Source: Escherichia coli
Lineage (GTDB): Bacteria > Pseudomonadota > Gammaproteobacteria > Enterobacterales > Enterobacteriaceae
Direction: 5' to 3' (one strand)
Assembly (NCBI RefSeq): GCF_041248615.1
Contig: NZ_CP158426.1
DNA length: 64,000 nt
In this document: positions 2,086 through 49,624 of the stretch, in pieces
How positions within the stretch are numbered: position 1 is the first letter of the stretch
Layout: each line of letters begins with the position of its first letter
The notes under the pieces: model-generated
What the model was told of the DNA's origin: nothing
The model's database searches: none
The model's input: only the letters and a program-made list of their open reading frames with translations
Translations under genes and position numbers: made by a program

Positions 2086-5000
2086 TTAATGGAAAATGAC
2101 GTCGGGTGCGCTTAACGCCTCACTCAAATCAAACACATCAAGTTCGGCAAAAGTGACGGATTTATTCTCACGGTATACATGAAGAGAACGGAAGCTCATT
2201 AGCGCTTTGCTATCAACATTGTAGTGGTTAAAACCGGATGAAAACTTAAGGACCAGCCGGTACTCGCCCAAGTCATAGACAAATGCGTTCTCATAGCCTG
2301 ACTCCCAGCCTTTGTATCGCAATCCCATAAGTTGCCCAACGGTAGCAGATTTACCTTCCCAGCGATTCAAACTATTACTGGCTGACTCGTCAGGCGTGAG
2401 CAGCACCGTGCGGCGCGACAATTGGCGAAAAGGCGACATAATTTCGTAATCGGCAAAAAGCTGTGCAAATTCACTGCGCATTTCTGCTGTCATTTCTAAC
2501 GGGTGGGCAATGCCAATCAGAGCATCGGCAGGCAGGTCAATTGGCTCATCTTGCTCATTGCAGAACTCCCCCTCAGCGGCCACACGAAAGGCGTTGAGTA
2601 AACAACGCGGTTCATTTGCCGGATAAACACCCCATATCAATCGCTGAGTAACCAGGCGGGTAAAGGGATGATTAATAAACAGAGAATGAAAATCTGCCAG
2701 CGACCAGCGTCGGGTGGTGCGCAGGGCAGTTTCAAGACGCGGGAGCAGGTTTTTGCTCACCTGAGTAGCATCTTTTTTTAGCCCTTTTAGTCGGGCCAGT
2801 GCCTCGGGTGCTTTCAGTTGATCGTCATCGGCGCGCAACCGGGGAACGCTTTTCTGGCGAACGTTTTGCTGATCAAAGATAACCGGGTTGAGGTTTTCAT
2901 CGAAGCGAACGGTAAATTGCCGTGGACCAAAATCAAAAATCAACGCCTGCGGATCATCAAGACCCAGTGTTGGGACTAATCTGTCCGCTAACTGTTCCTG
3001 GCTTAGCCCGCGATTTTCTGCGACCACCTGAAGAAATTCCGCCGCGTTATCACGTAAGGGGCGGGATTTCGCCCGTTGCGATATATGATGCAGCTGCATC
3101 AGCGCCATATCATTATTCATCAGGGTAAGGATGTTCAGGCCACTGACAGCACGGGCAGATTTGCCTTCTTGTGGCCAGGCGAGGATCTGTGTCGTTAGAT
3201 CCCGTGTCGTGCTTTCGTCACCAAAGAGACTTAACGCCAGAAATGCCCAGTTGTCTTTTGCGGGGGCACCAGCTTGTTGCCACGCAGTGAAGAGATCCCA
3301 GGCAAAAGCTGCCAGCGTTTGTGGCTGGCAGAACGTTTTCAGTTGTTCCAGCCCGCTATAAAAACGTCCGCCTTGGGTAAAGCGCAGCATTTCGCCGATA
3401 ATTTCCAGAGCGTCATCGGTAACAGGCTGATTATTTGTGATAAGGCGCGGCCTGGACCGCATTTGCGGCTGCCAGAAATCAGGGGCTTTTGGAATGCGTG
3501 TCGGGTAAATCTCTATTGGACTCTGTTTAAGTAATTGCTCCAGGGCAGGCCATACATCTGTACGCTGCCAGCGGTTTGCCACGGTTTGCAGTAACTCGCC
3601 ATGTCCCTGTTCGTAAAGTAAACGCAGGGCAAGTAATGCAGCTTCGCTATTATCGCTGGATTTGGTGAAGACAAGAGGGATAAGTGCAGTAGCTGTATGT
3701 TCCGGCCAATGTAAAATCCACTGGCGAGCCAGATCACGCTGCGCCGCGAAACGTCGCCAGACGCGGGCAACGGGCAGGGCCAGTTCTGTTGCGCCAAAAT
3801 TTAAAATTAACGGAAATGTTTCTTTTGGACGATGTGAAAAAGCCAACAGCAGACCTGGTAGAGCATCCAATCCGAAGATACTGAGAAAATAGTCCTCACC
3901 CGCAGACAGATGCTTTTTCTCATTGATACGTAGCCAGAAAGTCAAAGCCATCTCACGCGGCAACTGCGCCAATAAATACAGGTTCCAGATACTCTTTTCC
4001 CGACGATAGCGTGAGTAGCTGTCATTTTCCCATATGTTAATGAACACTTCTACGTGACCGTTGCGAAGCGCCTGTTCTGCTAATTGAGCTTCCGGGGAGC
4101 TCCAGCCATTCATGATCTCTTCAACCCGCCCTGGGTAGTAATGCCACTGAACAATGAGTGAATTGCGTGCAGCATCCAGTTTTCCGGGGAGTATATAATT
4201 CAAAAACAGCCATACATCATCTCCAAAACCCAGCTCCTGTAATACAACTCGTCCACTTTTTTGTTCCATGCGTTCCGCAAGAGATTCCGTGCTGAAATAA
4301 CGGGCAGACTCAGTGGCGGCAAGCCTCTCTTGTTCGCCTGGTTGCCAGTAAACTTGCGGGGTTAATTCGAGCGGTGCCAAATCAAGACGTGGAGCTGTCA
4401 TTTTTTTCTTACTACGCCACGGTGGTGAAACGAGGATTTCAGGCAGATTGCTGTTATCGGTGCCATCAATAACCGGTTTGGGCGGTGCCGATAAATAACT
4501 ATTCAGCACTGCCCGGGCTTGAGTACTTAACCACGGCATCACTTCTGCTGCCAGTTGTGGCTGCGATGCCATCAGCGTTTGTAACAGCGTACGCCAGTAT
4601 TCATCACGTGCTTTTTGCTGTGCAGGCAGCTTTTTGTCTTCGATGATTGGATAACCAGGGCGCGTAGGTGGTTCTTTTAGCGCCAGCAGTTCTGCCAGTG
4701 CGGCAAGCGTCGCATGGGGGAAATTTTTACTGTATTTAGCTACACGTTGCAGGCTGGGTTTGTTTTTATCAGCAACTAACAGCAGGGTGCGGATGACCTG
4801 CGGATGGTTAATTTGTACCAGCAGACTGCCGCAATCTTCTTTATGGGCATACATTGCCAGGCGTGGAACGGCTGCCAGTCCTTGTTCGCGCAAAAGGGCA
4901 GCGCAGGCCGCGTAGCCGAAGTGGTTTTCATGCGACATGTAGCTGGCTTCCCGATCGCTAAATATATCCTGGCTCCAGTAGCGTTCGAGTTTTCTCACCG

Positions 5001-5718
5001 CTCTGGGGTCAATAGCAACAACTTTTAACCACTCCTTAGAATGAAAATGAGTCCACGGGCATTCAAGGCTTACCAACTCATTGGCGATTTCTGGTTTTTC
5101 CGGGAGGATCAGAGCAATAAAAGGGCGGCGAACTTTGGTTATTCCTGGCAGTGCGGCAATGAGTTTGTCGGCGCAACGCTGCCAGCTGCTTTCCTCTGCC
5201 AGAGAGAGATGCTTACGCAGTCGGAGATCGAATTCGTTATAGGTTTCTGATCGATAACCATAGCCATAATCCTCGTTCTGATACTGCAATGTCACTAGCA
5301 GAGGATCACTTTCATAACATCGTGTAATAAACTGGCGTGCAATCACCACCTCAGTCGCATATTCCAGTCCCTCTTGTTGGACGATTTCGTCGAGCAACTG
5401 TTGGCTATCATTTTGCGCGATACAGGCTAGCGCCGCCATTGTCCGGGCCGGAACTGAGGGTTTGTGTTCGCCAATCAAGTTGATGGCCTGCGTAATGGCC
5501 GACTGCCACTCCAGTGAAAAATTATCATAACGCCAGACAATGTTTTTTTTCTTCTCAGCTTTTTGTAGCAATTCATCACCCAGTGTCTGGATGAGGCTTT
5601 CAGTGATAACAGGCACCGGTTCGCCCGGCCAACTGCGATGGCTGAGCGGCGTTTTGCCTTTTTTATATTTCAGTTCCACTTGGGCGTTATCCGCCAGCCA
5701 CGGTAATTCCTTGTCCAT
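2086..5718 (-). CDS. yehI: Large DUF4132-type protein YehI (1210 aa), paralog of MolR
   Basis: 1210-aa ORF; shares motifs with the neighbouring 1249-aa ORF (e.g. FDLRLRKHLSLAEE vs FDVRLRKHLALAEE; DFGPRQFTV in both). Confidence 0.85.
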   Translation of the reverse strand: MDKELPWLADNAQVELKYKKGKTPLSHRSWPGEPVPVITESLIQTLGDELLQKAEKKKNIVWRYDNFSLEWQSAITQAINLIGEHKPSVPARTMAALACIAQNDSQQLLDEIVQQEGLEYATEVVIARQFITRCYESDPLLVTLQYQNEDYGYGYRSETYNEFDLRLRKHLSLAEESSWQRCADKLIAALPGITKVRRPFIALILPEKPEIANELVSLECPWTHFHSKEWLKVVAIDPRAVRKLERYWSQDIFSDREASYMSHENHFGYAACAALLREQGLAAVPRLAMYAHKEDCGSLLVQINHPQVIRTLLLVADKNKPSLQRVAKYSKNFPHATLAALAELLALKEPPTRPGYPIIEDKKLPAQQKARDEYWRTLLQTLMASQPQLAAEVMPWLSTQARAVLNSYLSAPPKPVIDGTDNSNLPEILVSPPWRSKKKMTAPRLDLAPLELTPQVYWQPGEQERLAATESARYFSTESLAERMEQKSGRVVLQELGFGDDVWLFLNYILPGKLDAARNSLIVQWHYYPGRVEEIMNGWSSPEAQLAEQALRNGHVEVFINIWENDSYSRYRREKSIWNLYLLAQLPREMALTFWLRINEKKHLSAGEDYFLSIFGLDALPGLLLAFSHRPKETFPLILNFGATELALPVARVWRRFAAQRDLARQWILHWPEHTATALIPLVFTKSSDNSEAALLALRLLYEQGHGELLQTVANRWQRTDVWPALEQLLKQSPIEIYPTRIPKAPDFWQPQMRSRPRLITNNQPVTDDALEIIGEMLRFTQGGRFYSGLEQLKTFCQPQTLAAFAWDLFTAWQQAGAPAKDNWAFLALSLFGDESTTRDLTTQILAWPQEGKSARAVSGLNILTLMNNDMALMQLHHISQRAKSRPLRDNAAEFLQVVAENRGLSQEQLADRLVPTLGLDDPQALIFDFGPRQFTVRFDENLNPVIFDQQNVRQKSVPRLRADDDQLKAPEALARLKGLKKDATQVSKNLLPRLETALRTTRRWSLADFHSLFINHPFTRLVTQRLIWGVYPANEPRCLLNAFRVAAEGEFCNEQDEPIDLPADALIGIAHPLEMTAEMRSEFAQLFADYEIMSPFRQLSRRTVLLTPDESASNSLNRWEGKSATVGQLMGLRYKGWESGYENAFVYDLGEYRLVLKFSSGFNHYNVDSKALMSFRSLHVYRENKSVTFAELDVFDLSEALSAPDVIFH

Positions 5719-5727
5719 GCTCTTTCC

Positions 5728-8700
5728 TTATTCAAACAGGGCTTCAATATCGTTAATGAGTTCGCTGGCGGTGATGTCGTCGAGCACGGAGAACTGCGCT
5801 TCCTGAGTTGAATTACTCCCCCAGCCATAGCTTTCCGCTTTGCCTTCCCATAGCCACAGCTTGCTTAAGACCTGCTCAGCGCTAAGATCGGCTGGTGACA
5901 TACCCACCGCAAAACCTTCGTCGATTTCCATGATTAACGACCAGCGACCGAGAGGTTTGATCATCCATCCGATCCAGCCTCCATCCTGTGGTTCGCCCTT
6001 TATCCAGCCTTTATTTGCCAGCCCCATGACCCGGCCGCTCGGGCATTTTCTGCCTGCCCAGCGGGTCAGTTCGCTGGCGTTGCGCTCGGCTTCTGTCAGG
6101 GCGTAACTGTTACGTTCAAGCTGACGGAACGGTGGTAGCAGTTCGTAGTCGGCAAAAAGCTGACCAAAGGCGACAGCATCCGTCGGTGATATTTCCAGAA
6201 CGTGAGGAATGCCGATAGAGATATCGCCTTCCTGCAAGGTGAAAAGATCATCGTCAGCGGTGCTGTAGCTGTTATCTTCCGCCACCCTAAAGCACGCCTG
6301 TAGCTGGTTTTCGGCGCTATAAACGCCCCAAATCAGACGGCGGGTTAAGTGACGAACCAGCGGATGCTCAACCAGGAAGAGCTGAAAGTTTTCCGGCGAC
6401 CAGCGGCGGCGCAGGCACATGGCGGATTCCAGCCTTGCTACCTGCTGGGCGGCGACGGTACGCGCATCTTTTTTCAGCAATTTGTAGCGGTTAACAGCAT
6501 CGTTTGCCTGTGATTCATCATCGCTTTTATTGGGTTTAGGTAAGTCTTTCAGGCGGCTGCCGGAAACATCGCGCACAAACGGTTTTAAGGTTTCATCAAA
6601 GCTGACGGTGAACTGCCGTGGGCCAAAATCCAGCAGCAGCGAACCGTTATCATCCAGACCGAGATCCGGTGCTAACCGGTCTTCAAGCTCCGGCACCGTG
6701 AGTTCGCGGCTCTCGGCAATGTCGGCAATTTTCTCTTTCGCCCGCTCCTGTAAGGCTTTGAATTTCAGTTTCTGGGCGATGCCGTTAAGCTGCATCAGGG
6801 CGATATCGCTGCCGATAGCGGCGAGAATATCCAACCCAACGGTGGCACGTTTATGCTGAGATTCGCCAGGCCAGGCGCGGATTAATGGCGTCAGTTTGCG
6901 GGCGGTGTCATCGTTACCGAGAACGCCTAACGCAGTGAACGCCCAACTTTCTTTCGACGGCGCGCCAGCGGTCTGCCAGGCGGTAAACAGATCCCAGGCA
7001 AATTCAGCCAGTGAGTCGGCGGTACAGGCATCTTTCACCTGCAATAATCCCGGATACAGCGCCTCCTCCTGATGGAAGCGGAGCATTTCACCGAGGTGGA
7101 GGAGGGCGCTATCTGGCAGTGATTGGGCATTTGCTTTTAATACCGGGCGGGTCCAGATCGATGGCTGATAAAAGGCCGGAAGAGTGGGGATTTTTGTCGG
7201 GTGATTATCTAAGGGATCGAGCGCAAGCATAGCGTTCACCGCATCTGTTACTTCCGGCTGGTTATAACGCCGGGCGATTTCTTGCAGTAATGGCTGATGA
7301 TCGTTTTCGATAAGCATACGCAAGGCAGCGCGGGCGTTATCCTGGGCTTCACCGGCTTTGCCGAGCGCCGCAGGCAGTAGGCCGGTAATGGCGTGTTCCG
7401 GGTATTTCAGCAGCCAGGTGCGGGCGTCTTGTCGTAGGGTTTTGAGTTTGTTGAAGGCGCGGGCGATCAGTGGCGCTAATTCGATAGCCGCAAAATATTG
7501 TGCTACAGGCAGAGCTTCTTGTGGATAGCGTGAAAAGGAGTGAATAAAACCCTGTAACCCAGCGAGTTGCAGGTGCGTCATGACAAACTCGACACCGACG
7601 TGTGGCTCTTTACTGAGGACATTCCACGCCTGCGCTGTTTTTTCGATAGGCAGGGCGGCTAACATGTAAAGCTGCCATTCCCGTTGATAGGAGTGCCAGA
7701 AGGTTTTAAATTCGCTGATTAGCGCAGAATAATCTCCCCTCTGCCAGAGTTCTACAACAGCATCAGACGCTTTCATATACTGGCCATTATTCCAGCGATT
7801 GAAACCCAGACGTGTCAGGTAGTTCTGAATATCCTCTTTTTGGCCGATGTCTATTTGATGTGCGTGCCAGCGATGCCTTGCATGAATCTCTTTTTCTGCC
7901 GTCTCGGTCAATGTGCAGCATGACTCCAGCGGTAATGGCGTTAAATCCAATACCGGCATTACAGATTTTTTCTTTTTCGAAAGCCAGGGCGGTGAGACTA
8001 ATACGGCAGGCAGCATATCGGCGCTGGCATGGTTTGAGGGCTGTGTCAGTTGTTGCTGGCATGATTTCAGCACTGCAACTGCGGGTGTTGAGAGCCAGGG
8101 AGTGACCTGTTCTGCTAGTGCCGGTTGCGAGATAAGCATCGTCATCAGCATAATGCGCCAACTATTCTCTTCTTTTTGCGCAAGAAGTTCCGCCAGTGCA
8201 GCCAGTGCTGCGTGTGGGAACGCAGCGCAAGCCTTAGTCATTCGTTCATGGCAGCGTTTAGTTTTGCCAGACACACGTATAAGTAGCATTAATGCTTGTG
8301 GGTGATTGATCTCTTCGAGAATACTTCCACAAAGATCAGCATAAGCATAGGGGGCGAAGCGAGCGATTCCGGCAATCCCTTGCTCCTGCAAAACGGTGAC
8401 ATTCCAGATGCAACCATGGTAATAGTCATTAAAAAGGTCGTACGCGCAATAAGATTCCAGCGCTTTGAGTAAGAAAGATTCTTGAACAACAAGTTTCAGC
8501 CATTCAACAGTTTGGACATTTTTCTGCTTCAGTAACCGTCGTGCGACTTCTTCTGCAATCTCCGGGCGTTCCGGTAGCATTAGCGCTACCATCGGTTGTT
8601 GAACGGGAGGAATATCAGGTAAAGCTGTAATGAATTTATCTACACAGCGTTGCCACAAAGTTTCTTCTGCAAGAGCCAAATGCTTACGCAGTCGAACGTC

Positions 8701-9477
8701 AAAGGGGGTAACACAATGTGCATGGTTTAATAATGGCTGAAAAGTAATGTGTATGCTTGTTCTGTGATAAGTGCAATCGAACGAGATATATTGCATGGCA
8801 ATAAACATATCCACGGCAAATTCTAGTCCGTAGACATAGACAATTTCATCCATGAGTTCAGGGCATTCGCCCCAGAATTTACGTGAAACCAGAACAACCT
8901 GTACAGCCAACGCAGCAGGAGAAAGTGGACCATTAGCGAGAGCTTCATTGATATTCTGCTGCCAGTTAGCAGAACATGCACTGAAATCGTATGTTGTTAT
9001 TTTTCCTGATAGATTATGAATATCCTGACCTAAATTCATAAGGAGGCTGTCTTGTGGTTCGCTTACAGCATCCCCAGGAAAACGTCGGGAAGGTAAGGCC
9101 TCCTGAGACTTTTTCTCCGATAGATGGATAGGGGAATCATCTGTCAGCCACGGGCATGGTGTCTCAGCAGGTTCAACAACCATACTTTGGTCAAATACGA
9201 CTGTGGTTTCTGCCACGCCAGTTGTATCTACTTCGATCGTTTCTATTTTGATTGCGGGTTGGGATGGCGAAGATAATTCTTCCACATACCCCTTCTTCAC
9301 CTTCTCCGCAATCAGCTTCAGTTCCGCTTTTTCCGCCGCCGCAGCATCTGCAAAGCTTTTTACCTGACTTTGCCCGTTAGTGCCGACTTTACCCCAGTTA
9401 ATATGCAGCTCGTTTCCCTGCTGCTCCACCGCCCAGAATTTATGTGATTTTTCGTCCTGATAGATAAAGTGTTTCAT
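5728..9477 (-). CDS. molR: MolR/YehH, intact 1249-aa ORF with N-terminal WGR-like segment
   Basis: Uninterrupted ORF beginning MKHFIYQDEKSHKFWAVEQQGNELHINWGKVG; paralogous to yehI. In K-12 this locus is recalled as a fragmented pseudogene. Confidence 0.8.
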   Translation of the reverse strand: MKHFIYQDEKSHKFWAVEQQGNELHINWGKVGTNGQSQVKSFADAAAAEKAELKLIAEKVKKGYVEELSSPSQPAIKIETIEVDTTGVAETTVVFDQSMVVEPAETPCPWLTDDSPIHLSEKKSQEALPSRRFPGDAVSEPQDSLLMNLGQDIHNLSGKITTYDFSACSANWQQNINEALANGPLSPAALAVQVVLVSRKFWGECPELMDEIVYVYGLEFAVDMFIAMQYISFDCTYHRTSIHITFQPLLNHAHCVTPFDVRLRKHLALAEETLWQRCVDKFITALPDIPPVQQPMVALMLPERPEIAEEVARRLLKQKNVQTVEWLKLVVQESFLLKALESYCAYDLFNDYYHGCIWNVTVLQEQGIAGIARFAPYAYADLCGSILEEINHPQALMLLIRVSGKTKRCHERMTKACAAFPHAALAALAELLAQKEENSWRIMLMTMLISQPALAEQVTPWLSTPAVAVLKSCQQQLTQPSNHASADMLPAVLVSPPWLSKKKKSVMPVLDLTPLPLESCCTLTETAEKEIHARHRWHAHQIDIGQKEDIQNYLTRLGFNRWNNGQYMKASDAVVELWQRGDYSALISEFKTFWHSYQREWQLYMLAALPIEKTAQAWNVLSKEPHVGVEFVMTHLQLAGLQGFIHSFSRYPQEALPVAQYFAAIELAPLIARAFNKLKTLRQDARTWLLKYPEHAITGLLPAALGKAGEAQDNARAALRMLIENDHQPLLQEIARRYNQPEVTDAVNAMLALDPLDNHPTKIPTLPAFYQPSIWTRPVLKANAQSLPDSALLHLGEMLRFHQEEALYPGLLQVKDACTADSLAEFAWDLFTAWQTAGAPSKESWAFTALGVLGNDDTARKLTPLIRAWPGESQHKRATVGLDILAAIGSDIALMQLNGIAQKLKFKALQERAKEKIADIAESRELTVPELEDRLAPDLGLDDNGSLLLDFGPRQFTVSFDETLKPFVRDVSGSRLKDLPKPNKSDDESQANDAVNRYKLLKKDARTVAAQQVARLESAMCLRRRWSPENFQLFLVEHPLVRHLTRRLIWGVYSAENQLQACFRVAEDNSYSTADDDLFTLQEGDISIGIPHVLEISPTDAVAFGQLFADYELLPPFRQLERNSYALTEAERNASELTRWAGRKCPSGRVMGLANKGWIKGEPQDGGWIGWMIKPLGRWSLIMEIDEGFAVGMSPADLSAEQVLSKLWLWEGKAESYGWGSNSTQEAQFSVLDDITASELINDIEALFE

Positions 9478-29552: not shown

Positions 29553-31028
29553 TCATTTTTTGCTTTTTTGTACTTCCTTTTCGTATTTGTTCCACATAGC
29601 CTTTTGCTCTTCGGGACTGAGTGCTGTATTACCACTGGCAAGAAACACCTTGAACGCTTCTAACTCAAGCCCTGGGTTGCGGCTTTTCCAGCGGCGAAAA
29701 CGCTTAGCGTGATTATCATCAAGAGTGAAACGCTTTTGCTTATTCTTTGAACCTTGCGGCCTGCCTCTCGACCTCTGCTCATCATCAATACCGATATCTA
29801 TATACTCAATATTATCTGTAAGAGATCTGGCTTGCCATTCATCAAAAACATAAACAGTCTGTGTTTCAGTACTGTCAAAATCCCTTGAAATTCCTCGTAG
29901 TACGAACTGGTGTAAACTTTCGTACTCCCTCGCAACATGTATCGCCTCGCCGTCAATCTCAAAGAACAATTCGCACTGTTTAGCCTCTGTTTCAGAGGGA
30001 CGCATACAAGCGAGCCAGACGCACGTGAGCAAGTGTTGGTACTGGTTAAACCCTCTGGCATCCGGGCTTATCTCTGTGCCGTTTTTGAGGCTCTGAGAAT
30101 CGCTTTTGTTCTTCGTCCAGTAGAAATCCTGTCCCTCAAGTTTTTTATCAATAAATGAGTATATTTTTTGTACTTTATCAGGGTTATTAGTCTTCCATGT
30201 CTTCGATAGTTTTTGATTTTTTGAGAAGTAATAAACCTTTAATCTGTCTTTGAGAGCTGTTTTTCGTGTCAGTAATCCTCCAAGTTCAGTACTTTCAAAG
30301 AGTTCTTTATTGCCTTTATAGATCAATGAATTTTCGAAATTAGCTCCGAGAAAGGTGATTGATACGTCTTTGTACTTACTGAGATCTTTCCATGCGGTAA
30401 TATTAAGCTGTTCCTTTTTCGCATCGGTAAAGTACTCATTATTCATGATGAACATATCATTTTCGTTAATTGCTGGTAGCTGGTTCAAAATATTCTTCAG
30501 TACTTCCCCTTGTATTTCTGGTTTTCTTTCTGCCGCAATATACATATTTTTATCATCTAATGTCAGTACATTGTGTATTAATGAATTAAGAATTGTATTT
30601 TTTATATTAGTATCACCCTCATTAATATTCTGAAAAGAGTGAAAATTAGTAACGTCGTCAATATAAATATTACAGTCAGATAACAATTCAGGAGGAATTT
30701 TGAAAAACGTTTTATCTGTTATGAGTAATGTTTTATTACTTCCAGATGAAAGAAAGTTAATAACTGAATTAATAACACTTTCATCTTTTGGTACTGTATC
30801 TGTAATTATATACTCGCAATTATTGATTTGCTTTGCTGTCTGCTTAATAAGTTCTTGAGTGTTCTGTACTAAAATATATTTTTCAGTACTGTTATTGATT
30901 ATATTGCATATAGCAGTAGTTTTACCTGAACCACAAGGGGCGGAGACATACTTAAATTTATTATAAATAGGTGTGGGATTAATCATTTGTACACGCTCCA
31001 TATTGATTAATGTAGAAAGGTCAGCCAT
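29553..31028 (-). CDS. P-loop NTPase with basic C-terminal tail containing an AT-hook-like RGRP motif; function unknown
   Basis: N-terminal Walker A SAPCGSGKTT, Walker B-like NIYIDDV; C-terminus RSRGRPQGSKNKQKRF. Confidence 0.6.
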   Translation of the reverse strand: MADLSTLINMERVQMINPTPIYNKFKYVSAPCGSGKTTAICNIINNSTEKYILVQNTQELIKQTAKQINNCEYIITDTVPKDESVINSVINFLSSGSNKTLLITDKTFFKIPPELLSDCNIYIDDVTNFHSFQNINEGDTNIKNTILNSLIHNVLTLDDKNMYIAAERKPEIQGEVLKNILNQLPAINENDMFIMNNEYFTDAKKEQLNITAWKDLSKYKDVSITFLGANFENSLIYKGNKELFESTELGGLLTRKTALKDRLKVYYFSKNQKLSKTWKTNNPDKVQKIYSFIDKKLEGQDFYWTKNKSDSQSLKNGTEISPDARGFNQYQHLLTCVWLACMRPSETEAKQCELFFEIDGEAIHVAREYESLHQFVLRGISRDFDSTETQTVYVFDEWQARSLTDNIEYIDIGIDDEQRSRGRPQGSKNKQKRFTLDDNHAKRFRRWKSRNPGLELEAFKVFLASGNTALSPEEQKAMWNKYEKEVQKSKK

Positions 31029-40054: not shown

Positions 40055-41107
40055 ATGACAGATATTGCGCAGTTGCTTGGCAAAGACGCCGACAACCTTT
40101 TACAGCACCGTTGTATGACTATTCCTTCTGACCAGCTTTATCTCCCCGGACATGACTACGTAGACCGCGTGATGATTGACAATAATCGCCCGCCAGCGGT
40201 GTTACGTAATATGCAGACGTTGTACAACACTGGGCGTCTGGCTGGCACAGGATATCTTTCTATTCTGCCCGTTGACCAGGGCGTTGAGCACTCTGCCGGA
40301 GCTTCATTTGCCGCTAACCCGCTCTACTTTGACCCGAAAAACATTGTTGAACTGGCGATCGAAGCGGGCTGTAACTGTGTGGCGTCAACTTACGGCGTGC
40401 TGGCGTCGGTATCGCGGCGTTACGCGCATCGCATTCCATTCCTCGTCAAACTTAATCACAACGAGACGCTAAGTTACCCGAATACCTACGATCAAACGCT
40501 GTATGCCAGCGTGGAGCAGGCGTTCAACATGGGCGCGGTGGCGGTTGGTGCGACTATCTATTTTGGCTCGGAAGAGTCACGTCGCCAGATTGAAGAAATT
40601 TCTGCGGCTTTTGAACGTGCGCACGAGCTGGGCATGGTGACTGTGCTGTGGGCCTATTTGCGTAACTCCGCCTTTAAGAAAGATGGCGTTGATTACCATG
40701 TTTCCGCCGACCTGACTGGTCAGGCGAACCATCTTGCGGCAACCATAGGTGCAGATATCGTCAAACAAAAAATGGCGGAAAATAACGGCGGCTATAAAGC
40801 AATTAATTACGGTTATACCGACGATCGCGTGTACAGCAAGTTAACCAGCGAAAACCCGATTGATCTGGTGCGTTATCAGTTAGCTAACTGCTATATGGGC
40901 CGGGCTGGGTTGATAAACTCCGGCGGTGCTGCAGGCGGTGAAACTGACCTCAGCGATGCAGTGCGTACTGCGGTTATCAACAAACGCGCTGGCGGAATGG
41001 GGCTGATTCTTGGACGTAAGGCGTTCAAGAAATCGATGGCTGACGGCGTGAAACTGATTAACGCCGTGCAGGACGTTTATCTCGATAGCAAAATTACTAT
41101 CGCCTGA
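40055..41107 (+). CDS. fbaB: Class I fructose-bisphosphate aldolase
   Basis: Start at [35 protein letters not shown] (350 aa); ORF track begins 72 nt upstream. Confidence 0.9.
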
Positions 41108-41192
41108 TACGCCTTATACGAACAGCACTACCCCGTATGACGGAAAAGGCGTTTACGTCGCATCCGGCATAAAAACACGCGCACTTTGCTAC

Positions 41193-41220
41193 GGCTTCCC
41201 TATCGGGAGGCCGTTTTTTT
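41193..41220 (+). terminator. Rho-independent terminator after fbaB
   Basis: GGCTTCCC-TATC-GGGAGGCC hairpin followed by GTTTTTTT. Confidence 0.65.
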
Positions 41221-41280
41221 GCCTGTCATTCTGATTAATTTTCGAATTGTCGTTTTTGTGATCGTTATCTCGAGATTTAA

Positions 41281-43480
<2,200 letters not shown>

Positions 43481-43489
43481 GGACGGTAT

Positions 43490-43942
43490 ATGACTAACCT
43501 GTTTGTTCGTAGCGGAATTTCTTTTGTCGATCGTAGCGAAGTTTTAACCCATATCGGTACTGAGATGCTCGCGAAAGGTGTGGTTCATGATACCTGGCCA
43601 CAGGCATTAATTGCCAGAGAAGCAGAATTCCCTACCGGGATAATGCTTGAGCAGCACGCCATTGCAATACCGCATTGTGAGGCGATTCATGCTAAGTCGT
43701 CAGCCATTTATCTGTTAAGGCCAGCAAATAAAGTTCATTTTCAGCAAGCGGATGATGATAATGACGTGGCGGTATCGTTGGTTATTGCGTTGATTGTGGA
43801 AAATCCGCAGCAGCAATTGAAACTTTTACGCTGTTTATTTGGCAAGTTACAACAGCCCGATATCGTCGAGACACTAATCACTCTTCATGAAACCCAGTTA
43901 AAGGAATACTTCACAAAGTATGTTTTAGATTCAGACGAATAA
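43490..43942 (+). CDS. gatA: Galactitol PTS EIIA
   Basis: 150-aa ORF in gat operon position. Confidence 0.9.
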   Translation: MTNLFVRSGISFVDRSEVLTHIGTEMLAKGVVHDTWPQALIAREAEFPTGIMLEQHAIAIPHCEAIHAKSSAIYLLRPANKVHFQQADDDNDVAVSLVIALIVENPQQQLKLLRCLFGKLQQPDIVETLITLHETQLKEYFTKYVLDSDE

Positions 43943-43972
43943 ATCCCTCTGTAACAATAAAAAGGACTATTT

Positions 43973-44257
43973 ATGAAACGCAAGATTATTGTCGCTTGCG
44001 GAGGCGCGGTTGCGACCTCTACGATGGCGGCGGAAGAAATTAAAGAGTTGTGTCAGAGTCATAATATTCCTGTTGAATTAATCCAGTGTCGGGTTAATGA
44101 AATAGAGACCTATATGGATGGTGTGCATTTGATATGTACTACCGCCAAAGTTGACCGTAGTTTTGGCGATATTCCGTTAGTTCACGGCATGCCTTTTGTT
44201 TCTGGTGTCGGTATCGAAGCATTACAAAATAAAATTCTGACTATCTTACAGGGGTGA
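43973..44257 (+). CDS. gatB: Galactitol PTS EIIB
   Basis: 94-aa ORF with [16 protein letters not shown] (phospho-Cys motif). Confidence 0.9.
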
Positions 44258-44260
44258 CCT

Positions 44261-45616
44261 ATGTTTTCAGAAGTCATGCGTTATATTCTCGACCTCGGCC
44301 CTACGGTGATGCTGCCGATTGTCATCATTATTTTTTCTAAAATATTAGGCATGAAGGCAGGCGATTGCTTTAAAGCGGGTCTGCATATCGGGATTGGCTT
44401 TGTTGGCATTGGCCTTGTGATTGGCTTAATGCTGGATTCCATTGGTCCGGCGGCGAAAGCGATGGCGGAAAATTTCGACCTGAATCTGCATGTGGTCGAT
44501 GTCGGCTGGCCGGGCTCTTCACCAATGACCTGGGCGTCGCAAATTGCGCTGGTGGCGATTCCGATTGCGATTCTGGTTAACGTGGCGATGCTACTGACCC
44601 GTATGACGCGGGTGGTAAATGTTGATATCTGGAATATCTGGCATATGACCTTCACCGGCGCATTGCTGCATCTGGCAACCGGTTCATGGATGATAGGGAT
44701 GGCGGGTGTGGTAATTCACGCGGCGTTTGTTTATAAGCTCGGCGACTGGTTTGCCCGCGATACCCGAAATTTCTTTGAGCTGGAAGGCATTGCTATTCCG
44801 CACGGTACGTCGGCGTATCTGGGGCCAATTGCGGTGCTGGTGGATGCTATCATCGAGAAAATCCCAGGCGTTAACCGTATTAAATTTAGCGCCGACGATA
44901 TTCAGCGCAAATTTGGTCCGTTTGGCGAGCCTGTCACCGTGGGTTTTGTGATGGGGCTGATTATCGGCATCCTCGCGGGTTACGATGTCAAAGGTGTATT
45001 GCAGCTGGCGGTAAAAACGGCGGCAGTTATGCTGTTGATGCCACGGGTGATTAAACCCATCATGGATGGTTTAACGCCTATCGCTAAGCAGGCCCGTAGT
45101 CGTTTACAGGCGAAGTTCGGCGGTCAGGAGTTCCTGATTGGCCTTGATCCGGCGTTGCTGCTGGGGCATACGGCGGTGGTATCGGCAAGCCTGATTTTTA
45201 TCCCGCTCACCATTTTAATTGCTGTTTGTGTTCCGGGTAATCAGGTACTGCCGTTTGGCGACCTTGCCACCATCGGTTTCTTTGTGGCGATGGCGGTCGC
45301 CGTGCATCGTGGAAATCTGTTCCGCACCTTAATCTCGGGTGTCATCATTATGAGCATCACCCTGTGGATCGCGACGCAAACTATTGGTTTGCACACCCAA
45401 CTGGCGGCTAACGCTGGGGCGTTAAAAGCCGGAGGCATGGTGGCATCAATGGATCAGGGCGGTTCTCCCATTACCTGGTTACTGATTCAGGTTTTCTCCC
45501 CGCAAAATATTCCCGGTTTCATTATTATCGGTGCCATTTATCTTACCGGTATTTTCATGACCTGGCGTAGAGCGCGCGGCTTTATTAAACAAGAGAAAGC
45601 CGTTCTCGCAGAATAA
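44261..45616 (+). CDS. gatC: Galactitol PTS EIIC permease
   Basis: 451-aa polytopic membrane ORF. Confidence 0.9.
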   Translation: MFSEVMRYILDLGPTVMLPIVIIIFSKILGMKAGDCFKAGLHIGIGFVGIGLVIGLMLDSIGPAAKAMAENFDLNLHVVDVGWPGSSPMTWASQIALVAIPIAILVNVAMLLTRMTRVVNVDIWNIWHMTFTGALLHLATGSWMIGMAGVVIHAAFVYKLGDWFARDTRNFFELEGIAIPHGTSAYLGPIAVLVDAIIEKIPGVNRIKFSADDIQRKFGPFGEPVTVGFVMGLIIGILAGYDVKGVLQLAVKTAAVMLLMPRVIKPIMDGLTPIAKQARSRLQAKFGGQEFLIGLDPALLLGHTAVVSASLIFIPLTILIAVCVPGNQVLPFGDLATIGFFVAMAVAVHRGNLFRTLISGVIIMSITLWIATQTIGLHTQLAANAGALKAGGMVASMDQGGSPITWLLIQVFSPQNIPGFIIIGAIYLTGIFMTWRRARGFIKQEKAVLAE

Positions 45617-45663
45617 TTTTTACCTGAGGGGGAGTTTATCCCCCTTAATAATCAGGAGTTTTT

Positions 45664-46704
45664 ATGAAATCAGTGGTGAATGATACTGATGGTATCGTGC
45701 GCGTTGCCCAACGAGTCATTCCTGAAATTAAACATCAGGATGAGGTGCGGGTAAAAATTGCCAGCTCGGGATTATGTGGTTCCGATTTACCCAGAATATT
45801 TAAAAATGGTGCACATTATTATCCAATAACGTTAGGTCATGAATTTAGCGGCTATATTGATGCGGTGGGATCCGGTGTTGATGATTTACATCCTGGCGAT
45901 GCGGTTGCCTGTGTGCCGTTATTACCCTGTTTTACTTGTCCAGAGTGTTTGAAAGGGTTTTATTCCCAGTGCGCAAAATATGATTTTATTGGCTCGCGGC
46001 GTGATGGTGGATTTGCTGAGTATATTGTCGTTAACCGAAAAAATGTCTTTGCTCTACCCACGGATATGCCTATTGAGGATGGGGCTTTTATTGAACCGAT
46101 TACCGTTGGCCTGCATGCTTTCCATTTAGCGCAAGGTTGTGAGAATAAAAACGTTATTATTATTGGTGCCGGAACCATTGGCCTGCTGGCAATTCAGTGC
46201 GCTGTCGCGCTGGGAGCAAAGAGTGTGACGGCTATCGACATTAGCTCAGAAAAACTGGCACTGGCAAAATCTTTCGGTGCGATGCAAACATTTAACAGCC
46301 TTGAAATGAGCGCGCCGCAAATGCAGGGCGTTTTACGCGAGCTGCGCTTTAATCAGCTTATCCTCGAGACGGCTGGCGTCCCGCAAACCGTCGAACTGGC
46401 GGTAGAGATTGCCGGGCCTCATGCCCAGCTGGCGCTGGTGGGTACGTTGCATCAAGATTTGCATTTAACATCGGCAACGTTTGGCAAAATATTACGTAAA
46501 GAGCTGACGGTTATCGGCAGTTGGATGAACTACTCCAGCCCTTGGCCGGGGCAGGAGTGGGAAACGGCGAGCCGGTTGCTGACAGAACGTAAGTTAAGCC
46601 TGGAGCCATTAATCGCTCACCGTGGAAGCTTTGAAAGCTTCGCCCAGGCGGTGCGTGACATCGCTCGTAATGCTATGCCGGGCAAAGTGTTGCTTATTCC
46701 CTGA
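45664..46704 (+). CDS. gatD: Galactitol-1-phosphate 5-dehydrogenase (Zn-dependent MDR family)
   Basis: 346-aa ORF with GHEFSG and GAGTIG (Rossmann) motifs. Confidence 0.9.
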   Translation: MKSVVNDTDGIVRVAQRVIPEIKHQDEVRVKIASSGLCGSDLPRIFKNGAHYYPITLGHEFSGYIDAVGSGVDDLHPGDAVACVPLLPCFTCPECLKGFYSQCAKYDFIGSRRDGGFAEYIVVNRKNVFALPTDMPIEDGAFIEPITVGLHAFHLAQGCENKNVIIIGAGTIGLLAIQCAVALGAKSVTAIDISSEKLALAKSFGAMQTFNSLEMSAPQMQGVLRELRFNQLILETAGVPQTVELAVEIAGPHAQLALVGTLHQDLHLTSATFGKILRKELTVIGSWMNYSSPWPGQEWETASRLLTERKLSLEPLIAHRGSFESFAQAVRDIARNAMPGKVLLIP

Positions 46705-46803
46705 AACCGCGGGCCAGCGTGATGCTGGCCCGGTATTGTGCAAAACAGATCATTCACCAATGGTCCCCCTTCGTTTACACTAGCCACAATTGAATATGGG
46801 TAA

Positions 46804-47583
46804 ATGACGATGAATTCATTCGAGCGAAGGAATAAGATCATCCAATTAGTGAATGAACAGGGAACCGTGCTTGTTCAGGATCTGGCGGGAGTATTTGCTG
46901 CCTCGGAAGCGACAATCCGTGCCGATTTGCGCTTTCTCGAACAAAAAGGCGTGGTTACGCGCTTTCATGGCGGTGCGGCGAAAATAATGTCCGGTAATAG
47001 TGAAACCGAGACCCAGGAAGTTGGGTTTAAAGAGCGATTTCAGCTCGCCAGCGCGCCAAAAAACAGAATAGCGCAGGCGGCAGTCAAAATGATCCACGAA
47101 GGGATGACCGTTATTCTCGACAGCGGAAGTACGACAATGCTTATCGCCGAAGGATTAATGACCGCCAAAAATATCACGGTGATTACCAACAGTCTCCCGG
47201 CAGCATTTGCCCTTTCCGAAAATAAAGACATTACTCTGGTCGTCTGTGGTGGGACCGTCCGCCATAAAACACGCTCGATGCATGGTTCCATTGCCGAGCG
47301 TTCATTGCAGGATATTAATGCCGATTTAATGTTTGTCGGTGCTGATGGTATTGATGCGGTTAATGGTATTACGACCTTTAATGAAGGTTATTCGATTAGC
47401 GGGGCGATGGTTACAGCCGCAAATAAAGTGATTGCCGTTCTCGATTCATCGAAATTTAATCGTCGCGGTTTTAATCAGGTACTGCCAATCGAAAAAATTG
47501 ACATTATTATTACCGATGATGCCGTGTCAGAGGTGGATAAACTGGCATTGCAGAAGACACGGGTGAAATTAATTACGGTGTAG
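46804..47583 (+). CDS. gatR: DeoR-family repressor of the gat operon, uninterrupted
   Basis: 259-aa continuous ORF with N-terminal HTH (RRNKIIQLVNEQGTVLVQDLAGVFAASEATIRADL). Confidence 0.85.
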   Translation: MTMNSFERRNKIIQLVNEQGTVLVQDLAGVFAASEATIRADLRFLEQKGVVTRFHGGAAKIMSGNSETETQEVGFKERFQLASAPKNRIAQAAVKMIHEGMTVILDSGSTTMLIAEGLMTAKNITVITNSLPAAFALSENKDITLVVCGGTVRHKTRSMHGSIAERSLQDINADLMFVGADGIDAVNGITTFNEGYSISGAMVTAANKVIAVLDSSKFNRRGFNQVLPIEKIDIIITDDAVSEVDKLALQKTRVKLITV

Positions 47584-47664
47584 TATTGCTCTGTATGCCG
47601 GATAAAGTTTTTACACCGCATCCGGCATTACGGATTCTCCCTGGTTCAAGAGAGAATAGTGTGA

Positions 47665-48564
47665 TTAACGCAACAATGGGCAATCTGGTGGTAATCGACA
47701 ACGCAACGCCGCCGGAAGTATTTCAATATGAAAGTTTTGTCCGCTCAACGGTTCGCCATCAAGATTAAAAGTGATTTCGTGTGGGGCTTGTATATCAAAC
47801 CACGACGAAGCGCCTTCGATAATATTCGGGTTATCTTCGTCAGATTTTAATGTTGATACGAGAGCCGGAAGAATTTCATCGCCGGTAAAAATGCGCAGTT
47901 GCAGCAAGCCATCGTTAATTAACGCGTTCGGGCACAATTGCTGACCGCCACCGGCCTGACGCCCGTTACCAATACCAATGACCAGGGCGTCACCTTGCCA
48001 GTGAAAGTTTTCACCGCGGATCTCACAACGGTCCGGTTGCAGAGTATCCATGCGCATTAAGCCATGAATGATGTAAGAGACGCCACCCAGCGCGGCTTTT
48101 AATTTTTCCGGCGTTTCTGTGGTAATACGCGTCCCAAATCCGCCTGTCGCCATATTAATAAAACAGGTTTGTTTGTTGACCTGCGCCATATCTATCGCAA
48201 TGGCGTCACCGGCAATTGCCAGTTTCAGCGCCTTATCCAGTGCCTCAGGAATCCTTACACTGGTGGCAAAATCATTGGCGGTTCCTAATGGCAAAATTCC
48301 TAGCGCGGGTATGTCATCCCCCTCACACTGAATCAACGCCGTAGAAACTTCATTAATGGTGCCATCGCCACCACCGGCAATCACCGTTGCGACGCCCAAC
48401 TTCCGGGCCTCCTCTACATATCGTGCGGCATCGCCTTTCTCCCAGGTGACCCGCACATGGATCGTCATTCCTTCCTCACGCAACAGCATAATTGCTTCGC
48501 GCAAGGGTAGATTGTCAGTGCTTTTGCCATTAAGAATCAGTAAGCTGGCGGGAATTTCTGCCAT
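47665..48564 (-). CDS. yegS: Lipid kinase YegS (diacylglycerol-kinase catalytic domain family)
   Basis: 299-aa ORF with GGDGT motif. Confidence 0.9.
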
Positions 48565-48978
48565 GATCGTATGTGCCTTTATGATTGGTCTGTAGATAGT
48601 GTAGAGCAGAAAAGAAAAGGTGGAGTCAGAACAGGATGAAAGTCGGAGGATAAAAAGTCAGTTCAAGTATGGGGGATTCAGTGGTTACCACCAGGAGCTT
48701 GCAATGGGGACAGCGAATACTAACGGCAGCCACCGATAAATTTCAAAAAAGAGCATATACCTAATATTCAACTAAACAGTGGCATCTTCAATATACTATT
48801 AAAAATATATTAACCCCCCCATGGGGTTACCCGGAAGGGCATCCGTGTATGTAATTCCTACTTATGTAGGAAATGTTGTACAGAACATTTATTATAATCC
48901 TATTCAATTATAATAATCATGCCATTATTATATTTAAACACCAGAGCGTGTCGTTGGTATTTAATGGGGGAAGGTGAG

Positions 48979-49296
48979 ATGAAAAAGATAGCTGCTATAT
49001 CATTAATTAGTATTTTTCTTATGTCTGGTTGTGCTGTGCATAATGATGAGACAAGTATCGGTAAATTTGGTCTTGCATATAAAAGTAATATTCAGCGTAA
49101 ACTCGATAACCAATACTACACCGAAGCCGAAGCTTCTTTAGCCAGGGGCAGAATATCTGGTGCAGAAAATATAGTAAAAAATGATGCAGCTCATTTCTGT
49201 GTTACTCAGGGCAAAAAAATGCAGATAGTTGACCTGAAGACAGAAGGTGCAGGATTACATGGCGTCGCTCGTCTGACATTCAAATGTGGAGAGTGA
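48979..49296 (+). CDS. yegR: Small lipoprotein YegR
   Basis: Start at MKKIAAISLISIFLMSGC (lipobox), 105 aa; ORF track begins 60 nt upstream. Confidence 0.75.
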   Translation: MKKIAAISLISIFLMSGCAVHNDETSIGKFGLAYKSNIQRKLDNQYYTEAEASLARGRISGAENIVKNDAAHFCVTQGKKMQIVDLKTEGAGLHGVARLTFKCGE

Positions 49297-49453
49297 GAAT
49301 ATTTTTGGTAAGCGTCAAACATGCGCGTTCTGGTTGTGCTTAGCCGGAACCTGTGCGAGCACGATGCCGTTACGTGAAAGGCATCGTGCTATGAAGAGAG
49401 ATTCTATCGATGTGGTCAATGGAAGACGGTGACCAGGGATAGGGCTTATGCAT

Positions 49454-49540
49454 AAAAAATAAGCCCGTGTAAGGGAGATTACACAGGCTAAGGAGGTGGT
49501 TCCTGGTACAGCTAGCATTTTATGGGTTATGTTTTTCAGC
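49454..49540 (-). ncRNA. cyaR: CyaR (RyeE) Hfq-dependent small RNA
   Basis: Minus-strand sequence GCTGAAAAACATAACCCATAAAATGCTAGCTGTACCAGGAACCACCTCCTTAGCCTGTGTAATCTCCCTTACACGGGCTTATTTTTT matches the recalled CyaR sequence, ending in a terminator hairpin and U-tract. Confidence 0.9.
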
Positions 49541-49624
49541 GAAACGGATGATAACCTTAATAAATGCAGCTGTATGTGATCGGTTTCTAAGAATTTTCCA
49601 TCCGGGAAAAATAATCGAAATTAA

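Follow-up and report, generated by a model that had tools for sequence, protein, structure and literature searches.

The galactitol locus studied here raises the question of whether its gatR gene, which follows gatD in the window (the whole 64,000-nucleotide stretch of Escherichia coli DNA that was analyzed), is intact, and whether galactitol catabolism in this strain is to be expected to be inducible rather than constitutive. The original description of GatR is that of Nobelmann & Lengeler (1996, J Bacteriol 178:6790), as cited in PMC5850726, PMC10878103, and PMC4072538, and the passages of these papers that cite the original work state that in K-12 the gene is interrupted by an insertion sequence, so that gat expression is constitutive. 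The same interruption and its consequence are likewise stated in PMC9189660.

In the window, gatR lies in a single 259-codon frame on the plus strand (46804..47583) that begins with ATG and contains no internal stop, as revealed both by the listing of open reading frames and by direct reading of the DNA. This longest ORF begins 100 bases after the end of gatD (45664..46704). Its first ATG, however, aligns with ATC or ATT triplets in the upstream DNA of Enterobacter, Kosakonia, and Phytobacter, and we have therefore set the 259-aa start at 46804 aside. Because this ATG is not conserved in the other genera, the second ATG, at 46810, is favored and is probably the real start, giving a product of 257 rather than 259 aa. 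The RefSeq/PGAP annotation in strain NRZ14408 also begins from the second ATG and describes a 257-aa DeoR/GlpR-family regulator (WP_001295426.1), and the GatR orthologs of seven other Enterobacteriaceae are all 257 aa long with the N-terminus MNSFERRNK.

The Pfam search identified an N-terminal helix-turn-helix and a C-terminal sensor domain in the gatR product (Table 1), the latter match spanning profile positions 5–159 of 160. Both domains, together with a length of 257–259 aa against the approximately 250 aa expected, place the protein in the DeoR/GlpR family. The nearest solved structure, and the sole one detectable by sequence, is the C-terminal domain of DeoR (7L6L, E=1.9e-11, aa 83-254). 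The evidence that gatR is a true gene is far beyond chance.

Table 1. Features of the gat locus, in window coordinates
Feature	Position	Strand	Details
Candidate upstream GatR operator units TTTCGAAT, TGTCGTTT	41240..41255	+	Putative; in the gatY promoter
CRP-like site TGTGA-N6-TCTCG	41257..41272	+	Putative, by match to the consensus; invariant in 8 E. coli alleles
Candidate gatY promoter	41274..41302	+	Putative; -35 GATTTA, 17-nt spacer, -10 TATATT
Candidate downstream GatR operator units TGTCGTTT, TTTCGATT	41307..41324	-	Putative; between the -10 and the gatY ribosome-binding site
gatY, gatZ, gatA, gatB, gatC, gatD	41335..46704	+	284, 420, 150, 94, 451, 346 aa; all full length
9-bp G+C-rich hairpin	46710..46732	+	Just after the gatD stop, between gatD and gatR; from a repeat search; -20.5 kcal/mol, z=-2.7
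Candidate gatR promoter	46753..46781	+	Putative; -35 TTCACC (46753-46758), 17-nt spacer, -10 TACACT (46776-46781)
Operator-like unit CTTCGTTT	46769-46776	+	Putative; overlaps the spacer and -10 of the candidate gatR promoter
gatR CDS	46810..47583	+	257 aa plus stop; longest ORF opens two codons earlier, at 46804
DeoR-type helix-turn-helix, N-terminal	46825..46983	+	PF08220 (HTH_DeoR); aa 8-60 of the 259-aa ORF; E=1.3e-16, 60.5 bits (cut-off 21)
DeoRC sensor (effector-binding) domain, C-terminal	47056..47517	+	PF00455; aa 85-238; E=2.5e-51, 174.2 bits (cut-off 31.8)
GAC triplet, IS3 target site in K-12	47106..47108	+	Duplicated in K-12, uninterrupted in the window (blastn against the K-12-type locus and junctions)
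REP-like hairpin	47597..47626	.	In the 81-bp convergent spacer between gatR and yegS

Comparison with E. coli HS revealed the same RefSeq protein, WP_001295426.1, at the same position after gatD and before yegS. Counted from 46810, our own translation gave no amino-acid differences between the window and HS, all 16 nucleotide differences being synonymous, and the 120 bp upstream of gatR were the same in both except for one base inside gatD. The seven orthologs from other Enterobacteriaceae (Citrobacter, Enterobacter, Kosakonia, Phytobacter, Superficieibacter, Scandinavium, and a Klebsiella-labelled isolate) share 72–86% identity with the window GatR and align with it end to end, at 100% coverage and without gaps save for the two additional residues at the N-terminus of the longest ORF. 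No frameshift, stop, insertion, or truncation was found in the window gatR relative to these seven full-length homologs, and the residues that are invariant across the eight orthologs are all kept in it. The five orthologs whose contigs were examined, all of 257 aa, lie within gatYZABCD-R clusters. The original prediction of a continuous DeoR-family ORF after gatD is thus borne out by the frame itself, the Pfam domains, and the end-to-end alignment, in which the frameshift or truncation that it had named as counter-evidence did not appear. Its length of 259 aa holds for the longest ORF, whereas the likely product, judged by the RefSeq start and the orthologs, has 257 aa.

The K-12-type allele was represented by AML002_ev01, in which the annotation shows gatR as two partial pseudogene fragments with an IS3-family transposase between them, and whose gatR/IS3 junction recurs in MG1655 and ER1709. 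By blastn, the K-12 break falls after the base equivalent to window 47108, with the 3-bp target duplication GAC on either side. Upon removal of IS3 and one GAC copy from the K-12-type gatR, a 780-nt frame was obtained whose product is identical to that of the window. The annotation, the junction, and the literature therefore all agree with the statement in the original prediction that K-12 gatR is disrupted by an insertion sequence and that gat is constitutive there. The element was named IS3E in PMC4072538; one passage of PMC5850726 terms it 'IS1', whereas the RefSeq annotation and PMC4072538 give IS3/IS3E. Across window positions 46701-47700, the nucleotide identity to the K-12-type allele falls from 99.5% 5' of the IS3 site to 96.6% 3' of it, and the gatR of HS displays the same skew, its first 300 nt holding only 2 of the 16 differences. 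This skew inside gatR may mark an old recombination boundary, and the changes involved are all synonymous.

Our survey of 5,426 complete E. coli genomes revealed a gatR match in 5,109 and no match in 317. The gene was in one piece in 4,756 of the 5,426 (~88%), where one piece denotes at least 80% of gatR in contiguous form, a coverage criterion that is blind to point-mutation pseudogenes. An 80-base probe for the K-12 gatR/IS3 junction was present in exactly 349/5,426 genomes, a number that equals, to within a few, that of the genomes with a gatR match broken into separate pieces. Listed examples such as MG1655 and ER1709 suggest that the 349 are K-12-derived strains. In E. coli, gatR is normally intact, and the IS3 disruption is a trait of the K-12 lineage; given the 4,756 genomes with an intact gene, the window feature is therefore not distinctive. 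Nucleotide identity to the window gatR is 95–99% in nearly all genomes matched. Four divergent E. coli alleles differ from it by 11, 16, 26, and 29 nucleotides (82 in all) and carry zero or one conservative residue change each, two in all (E241D and I196V). The gatR of strain 95NR1, with 26 nucleotide differences and 96.7% nucleotide identity, encodes a protein identical to that of the window. The gene is under strong purifying selection, the differences among its alleles being almost all synonymous. A separate case is E. coli PCP06238 (contig 5288-6082), in which fbaB, gatYZABCD, and gatR except for its last 82 bases are missing and an IS1 lies beside a shortened yegT instead; the gat locus has thus been damaged a second time, independently, in association with an IS.

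The genes that GatR is expected to control are also preserved in the window. The six gat structural genes have the same lengths as in HS, and none carries a pseudogene flag in the annotation. The locus begins with fbaB, continues with gatYZABCD and gatR on the same strand, and ends with the convergent yegS, and gatR lies directly downstream of gatYZABCD in the window, HS, M217, Enterobacter, Kosakonia, and Phytobacter. Window positions 36000-60000 are 100% identical to the chromosome of E. coli NRZ14408 (NZ_LT599825.1), and an Rfam scan of 40900-49400 returned no RNA family. The start of gatY is placed at 41329 by the ORF listing (MKMYVV, 286 aa) and at 41335 by PGAP (MYVV, 284 aa), and at the upstream of these two start codons E. 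coli alleles carry either ATG or GTG. The chromosomal location of the gatYZABCD-gatR cluster varies among Enterobacteriaceae: it is flanked by garD and rsmI/lpoA in Enterobacter, Kosakonia, and Phytobacter (contigs ~2460-8774) and by fbaB and yegS in E. coli. Two gaps in the surroundings also vary within the species. The yegR/yegQ gap of K-12 (6357-6869 of the K-12-type locus) holds a P2-like remnant, made up of ogrK and part of a late control D gene, that is absent from the window (49298-49624), M217, and HS, and the fbaB-gatY gap of HS (29554-29860 of the HS locus) holds ~80 bp of extra REP-like DNA that is absent from the window (~41150) and M217.

With the coding sequence intact, regulation would further depend on the expression of gatR and on its target sites. 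A hairpin at the gatD-gatR position is conserved in three other genera, and downstream of it the block CCTTCG(A/T)TTA(C/G)A(C/A)TA, which holds the -10-like TACACT, is conserved in E. coli, Enterobacter, Kosakonia, and Phytobacter. The consensus promoter/terminator scan at the gatY and gatR promoters yielded nothing useful and did not list the gatR candidate, which has only 4/6 consensus matches per hexamer; the candidate is based on cross-genus conservation instead. In the cross-genus alignment, a conserved CCTTCGNTT unit overlaps the gatR -10 region. The operator-like unit that lies over the candidate gatR promoter suggests that GatR may regulate its own gene.

At the gatY promoter, the octamer TGTCGTTT is present in the only two copies found in the 64 kb, which are inverted relative to each other (41248-41255 and 41317-41324). 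These copies bracket the CRP-like site and the candidate gatY -35/-10, with the TTTCGAAT and TTTCGATT units adjoining. The excess of the operator motif in the E. coli gatY promoter is modest (2 observed against 0.14–0.45 expected, for a motif defined post hoc), and the DNA upstream of gatY in Enterobacter, Kosakonia, and Phytobacter contains 3–6 TTTCG(A/T) units per ~130 bp against 0.17–0.26 expected (P 7e-4 to 1e-7, this motif being chosen post hoc as well). The element AAACGA(A/C)AGG, just before the gatY ribosome-binding site, is common to E. coli and the same three genera. From these patterns we infer that the TTTCG/TGTCG units are candidate GatR operators in the gat promoters, partly conserved across genera.

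Within E. coli, the fbaB-gatY intergenic region (41190-41340) varies much more than the genes beside it. Eight diverse E. coli alleles of the gatY promoter all share the block ATTGTCGTTTTTGTGATCGTTATCTCGA unchanged, and three of them vary in the right-hand TGTCGTTT unit. The window allele is rare, being matched at ≥99% identity in 45 of the 5,426 genomes, at 90–95% in 4,022, and at 80–90% in 356, and it differs from the allele used in the HS/K-12 experiment described below. Its differences, several SNPs and a 2-bp indel, lie close together at 41222-41247, right before the invariant core; one variant base creates a TTTCG unit and destroys none, and the ATTGTCGTTTTTGTGATCGTTATCTCGA block and TTTTGAAATCGAAA element are unchanged. 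A shift in the tightness of GatR repression or the ease of induction due to this rare allele (with its additional TTTCG unit at 41240-41247 and, upstream, a deletion of 2 bp) is conceivable, although we consider it unlikely. If it did occur, lineages would differ in their gat regulatory set-point by promoter variation and not by loss of gatR.

The answer to the opening question is that the window gatR is very likely a functional wild-type gene for the DeoR-family repressor of the galactitol gatYZABCD operon, with gat expression predicted to be inducible. Replacement of the K-12 pseudogene by the native HS gatR rendered the operon regulated, and the fragment that conferred regulation in K-12 was HS gatD-to-yegS (PMC5850726). 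Since the window GatR is identical to that of HS and the gatR promoter region is the same, regulation is to be expected in the window strain. Such identity is the nearest to a functional test that sequence analysis permits. Inducible, GatR-repressed galactitol catabolism in the window strain can be regarded as a well-supported prediction, and in this form the expectation that an intact gatR entails inducible gat genes gains support from the HS comparison. When the gatR-restored strain was placed in the mouse gut, constitutive mutants re-emerged, and targeted PCR pointed to new IS insertions in gatR as a possible cause (PMC5850726).

In the mechanism that we propose, GatR would be produced from its own weak candidate promoter, and its N-terminal helix-turn-helix would bind TTTCG/TGTCG-type repeat units. 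The bound units would bracket the gatY CRP site and core promoter, one further unit would overlap the gatR promoter, and this binding would keep the gat operon off. The GatABC PTS would import and phosphorylate galactitol, and a phosphorylated intermediate of the pathway would then bind the DeoRC domain and lead to the release of GatR. Effectors of DeoR-family repressors are typically phosphorylated pathway intermediates, and by analogy with other members of the family the inducer would most likely be galactitol-1-phosphate. The gat genes would thus be inducible in the window strain, whereas K-12, lacking the repressor, expresses them constitutively.

An intact ORF could nevertheless belong to a silent or ineffective regulator, with gat still constitutive or leaky owing to a weak or dead gatR promoter or to a poorly bound gatY allele. 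The unusual polymorphism of the gatY promoter would fit such a situation, as would the rarity of the window allele with its 2-bp indel and several SNPs at 41222-41247 and the weak consensus match of the gatR promoter. Yet upstream of gatR the window has the same sequence as HS, the strain from which the gatD-to-yegS fragment that conferred regulation was taken, and the gatY variants lie upstream of a ATTGTCGTTTTTGTGATCGTTATCTCGA block that, like the TTTTGAAATCGAAA element, is unchanged, one of them even creating a TTTCG unit. We therefore judge a silent regulator to be very improbable, and a repressor that is both produced and bound remains the preferred reading.

The identity of the gene can be questioned on other grounds, as the best NCBIfam models for its product are AgaR (232.9 bits) and SrlR (226.3 bits) and its RefSeq name is no more specific than 'DeoR/GlpR family', so that it might be an AgaR or SrlR paralog, another DeoR-family sugar repressor, standing beside gat by chance. 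These scores, however, fall below the curated cut-offs (260 for AgaR, NF040755, and 350 for SrlR, NF007753), the protein is identical to HS GatR and to the rebuilt K-12 GatR, the gene follows gatD in other genera as well, and the orthologs are called 'galactitol utilization operon repressor' in several sources. On the sub-cut-off scores, the synteny, and the identity to HS GatR, we rejected the paralog, whose probability we consider negligible. It is just as hard to credit that gatR is a recently decayed pseudogene, inactivated by a missense change though seemingly intact: nothing was found in favor of this reading, there are no amino-acid differences from the functional HS allele, all residues invariant in the eight orthologs are retained, and allele differences are almost all synonymous. 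The evidence continues to favor a functional GatR.

Both the gene and its K-12 disruption, with the resulting phenotype, are already known, having been described in 1996 and re-tested in 2017, and the present result matters little beyond correct annotation. The clinical-type E. coli analyzed here appears to possess the ancestral, regulated galactitol system, and the constitutive gat expression of K-12 represents a lineage-specific lesion, with one common junction in 349 of the 5,426 complete genomes. This bears on the extrapolation of K-12 gut-colonization results to natural isolates: during gut colonization by K-12, loss of gat is strongly selected because its expression is constitutive, and strains with an intact gatR show a different behavior in mice (PMC5850726).

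Compared with known systems, the window shares with E. coli HS the GatR protein, the locus position, and the upstream region, and differs from it by the 16 synonymous gatR changes, by another gatY promoter allele, and by the ~80 bp of extra REP-like DNA in HS. The K-12 gatR::IS3 allele is the same gene and encodes the same protein after removal of IS3 and one GAC, but its IS3 element of ~1.26 kb splits the gene near codon 100 and leaves gat expression constitutive, whereas the window carries no insertion. AgaR, the N-acetylgalactosamine/galactosamine repressor of the DeoR family, has the same two-domain architecture and is the top NCBIfam model for the gatR product, but it belongs to a different operon, and the gatR product scores below the AgaR equivalog cut-off (232.9 vs 260). 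AgaR operators contain TTTCRTTT-like repeats, and these resemble the units in the gat promoters. E. coli DeoR (PDB 7L6L) shares the sensor domain family with GatR but is a distant paralog with a different effector and regulon.
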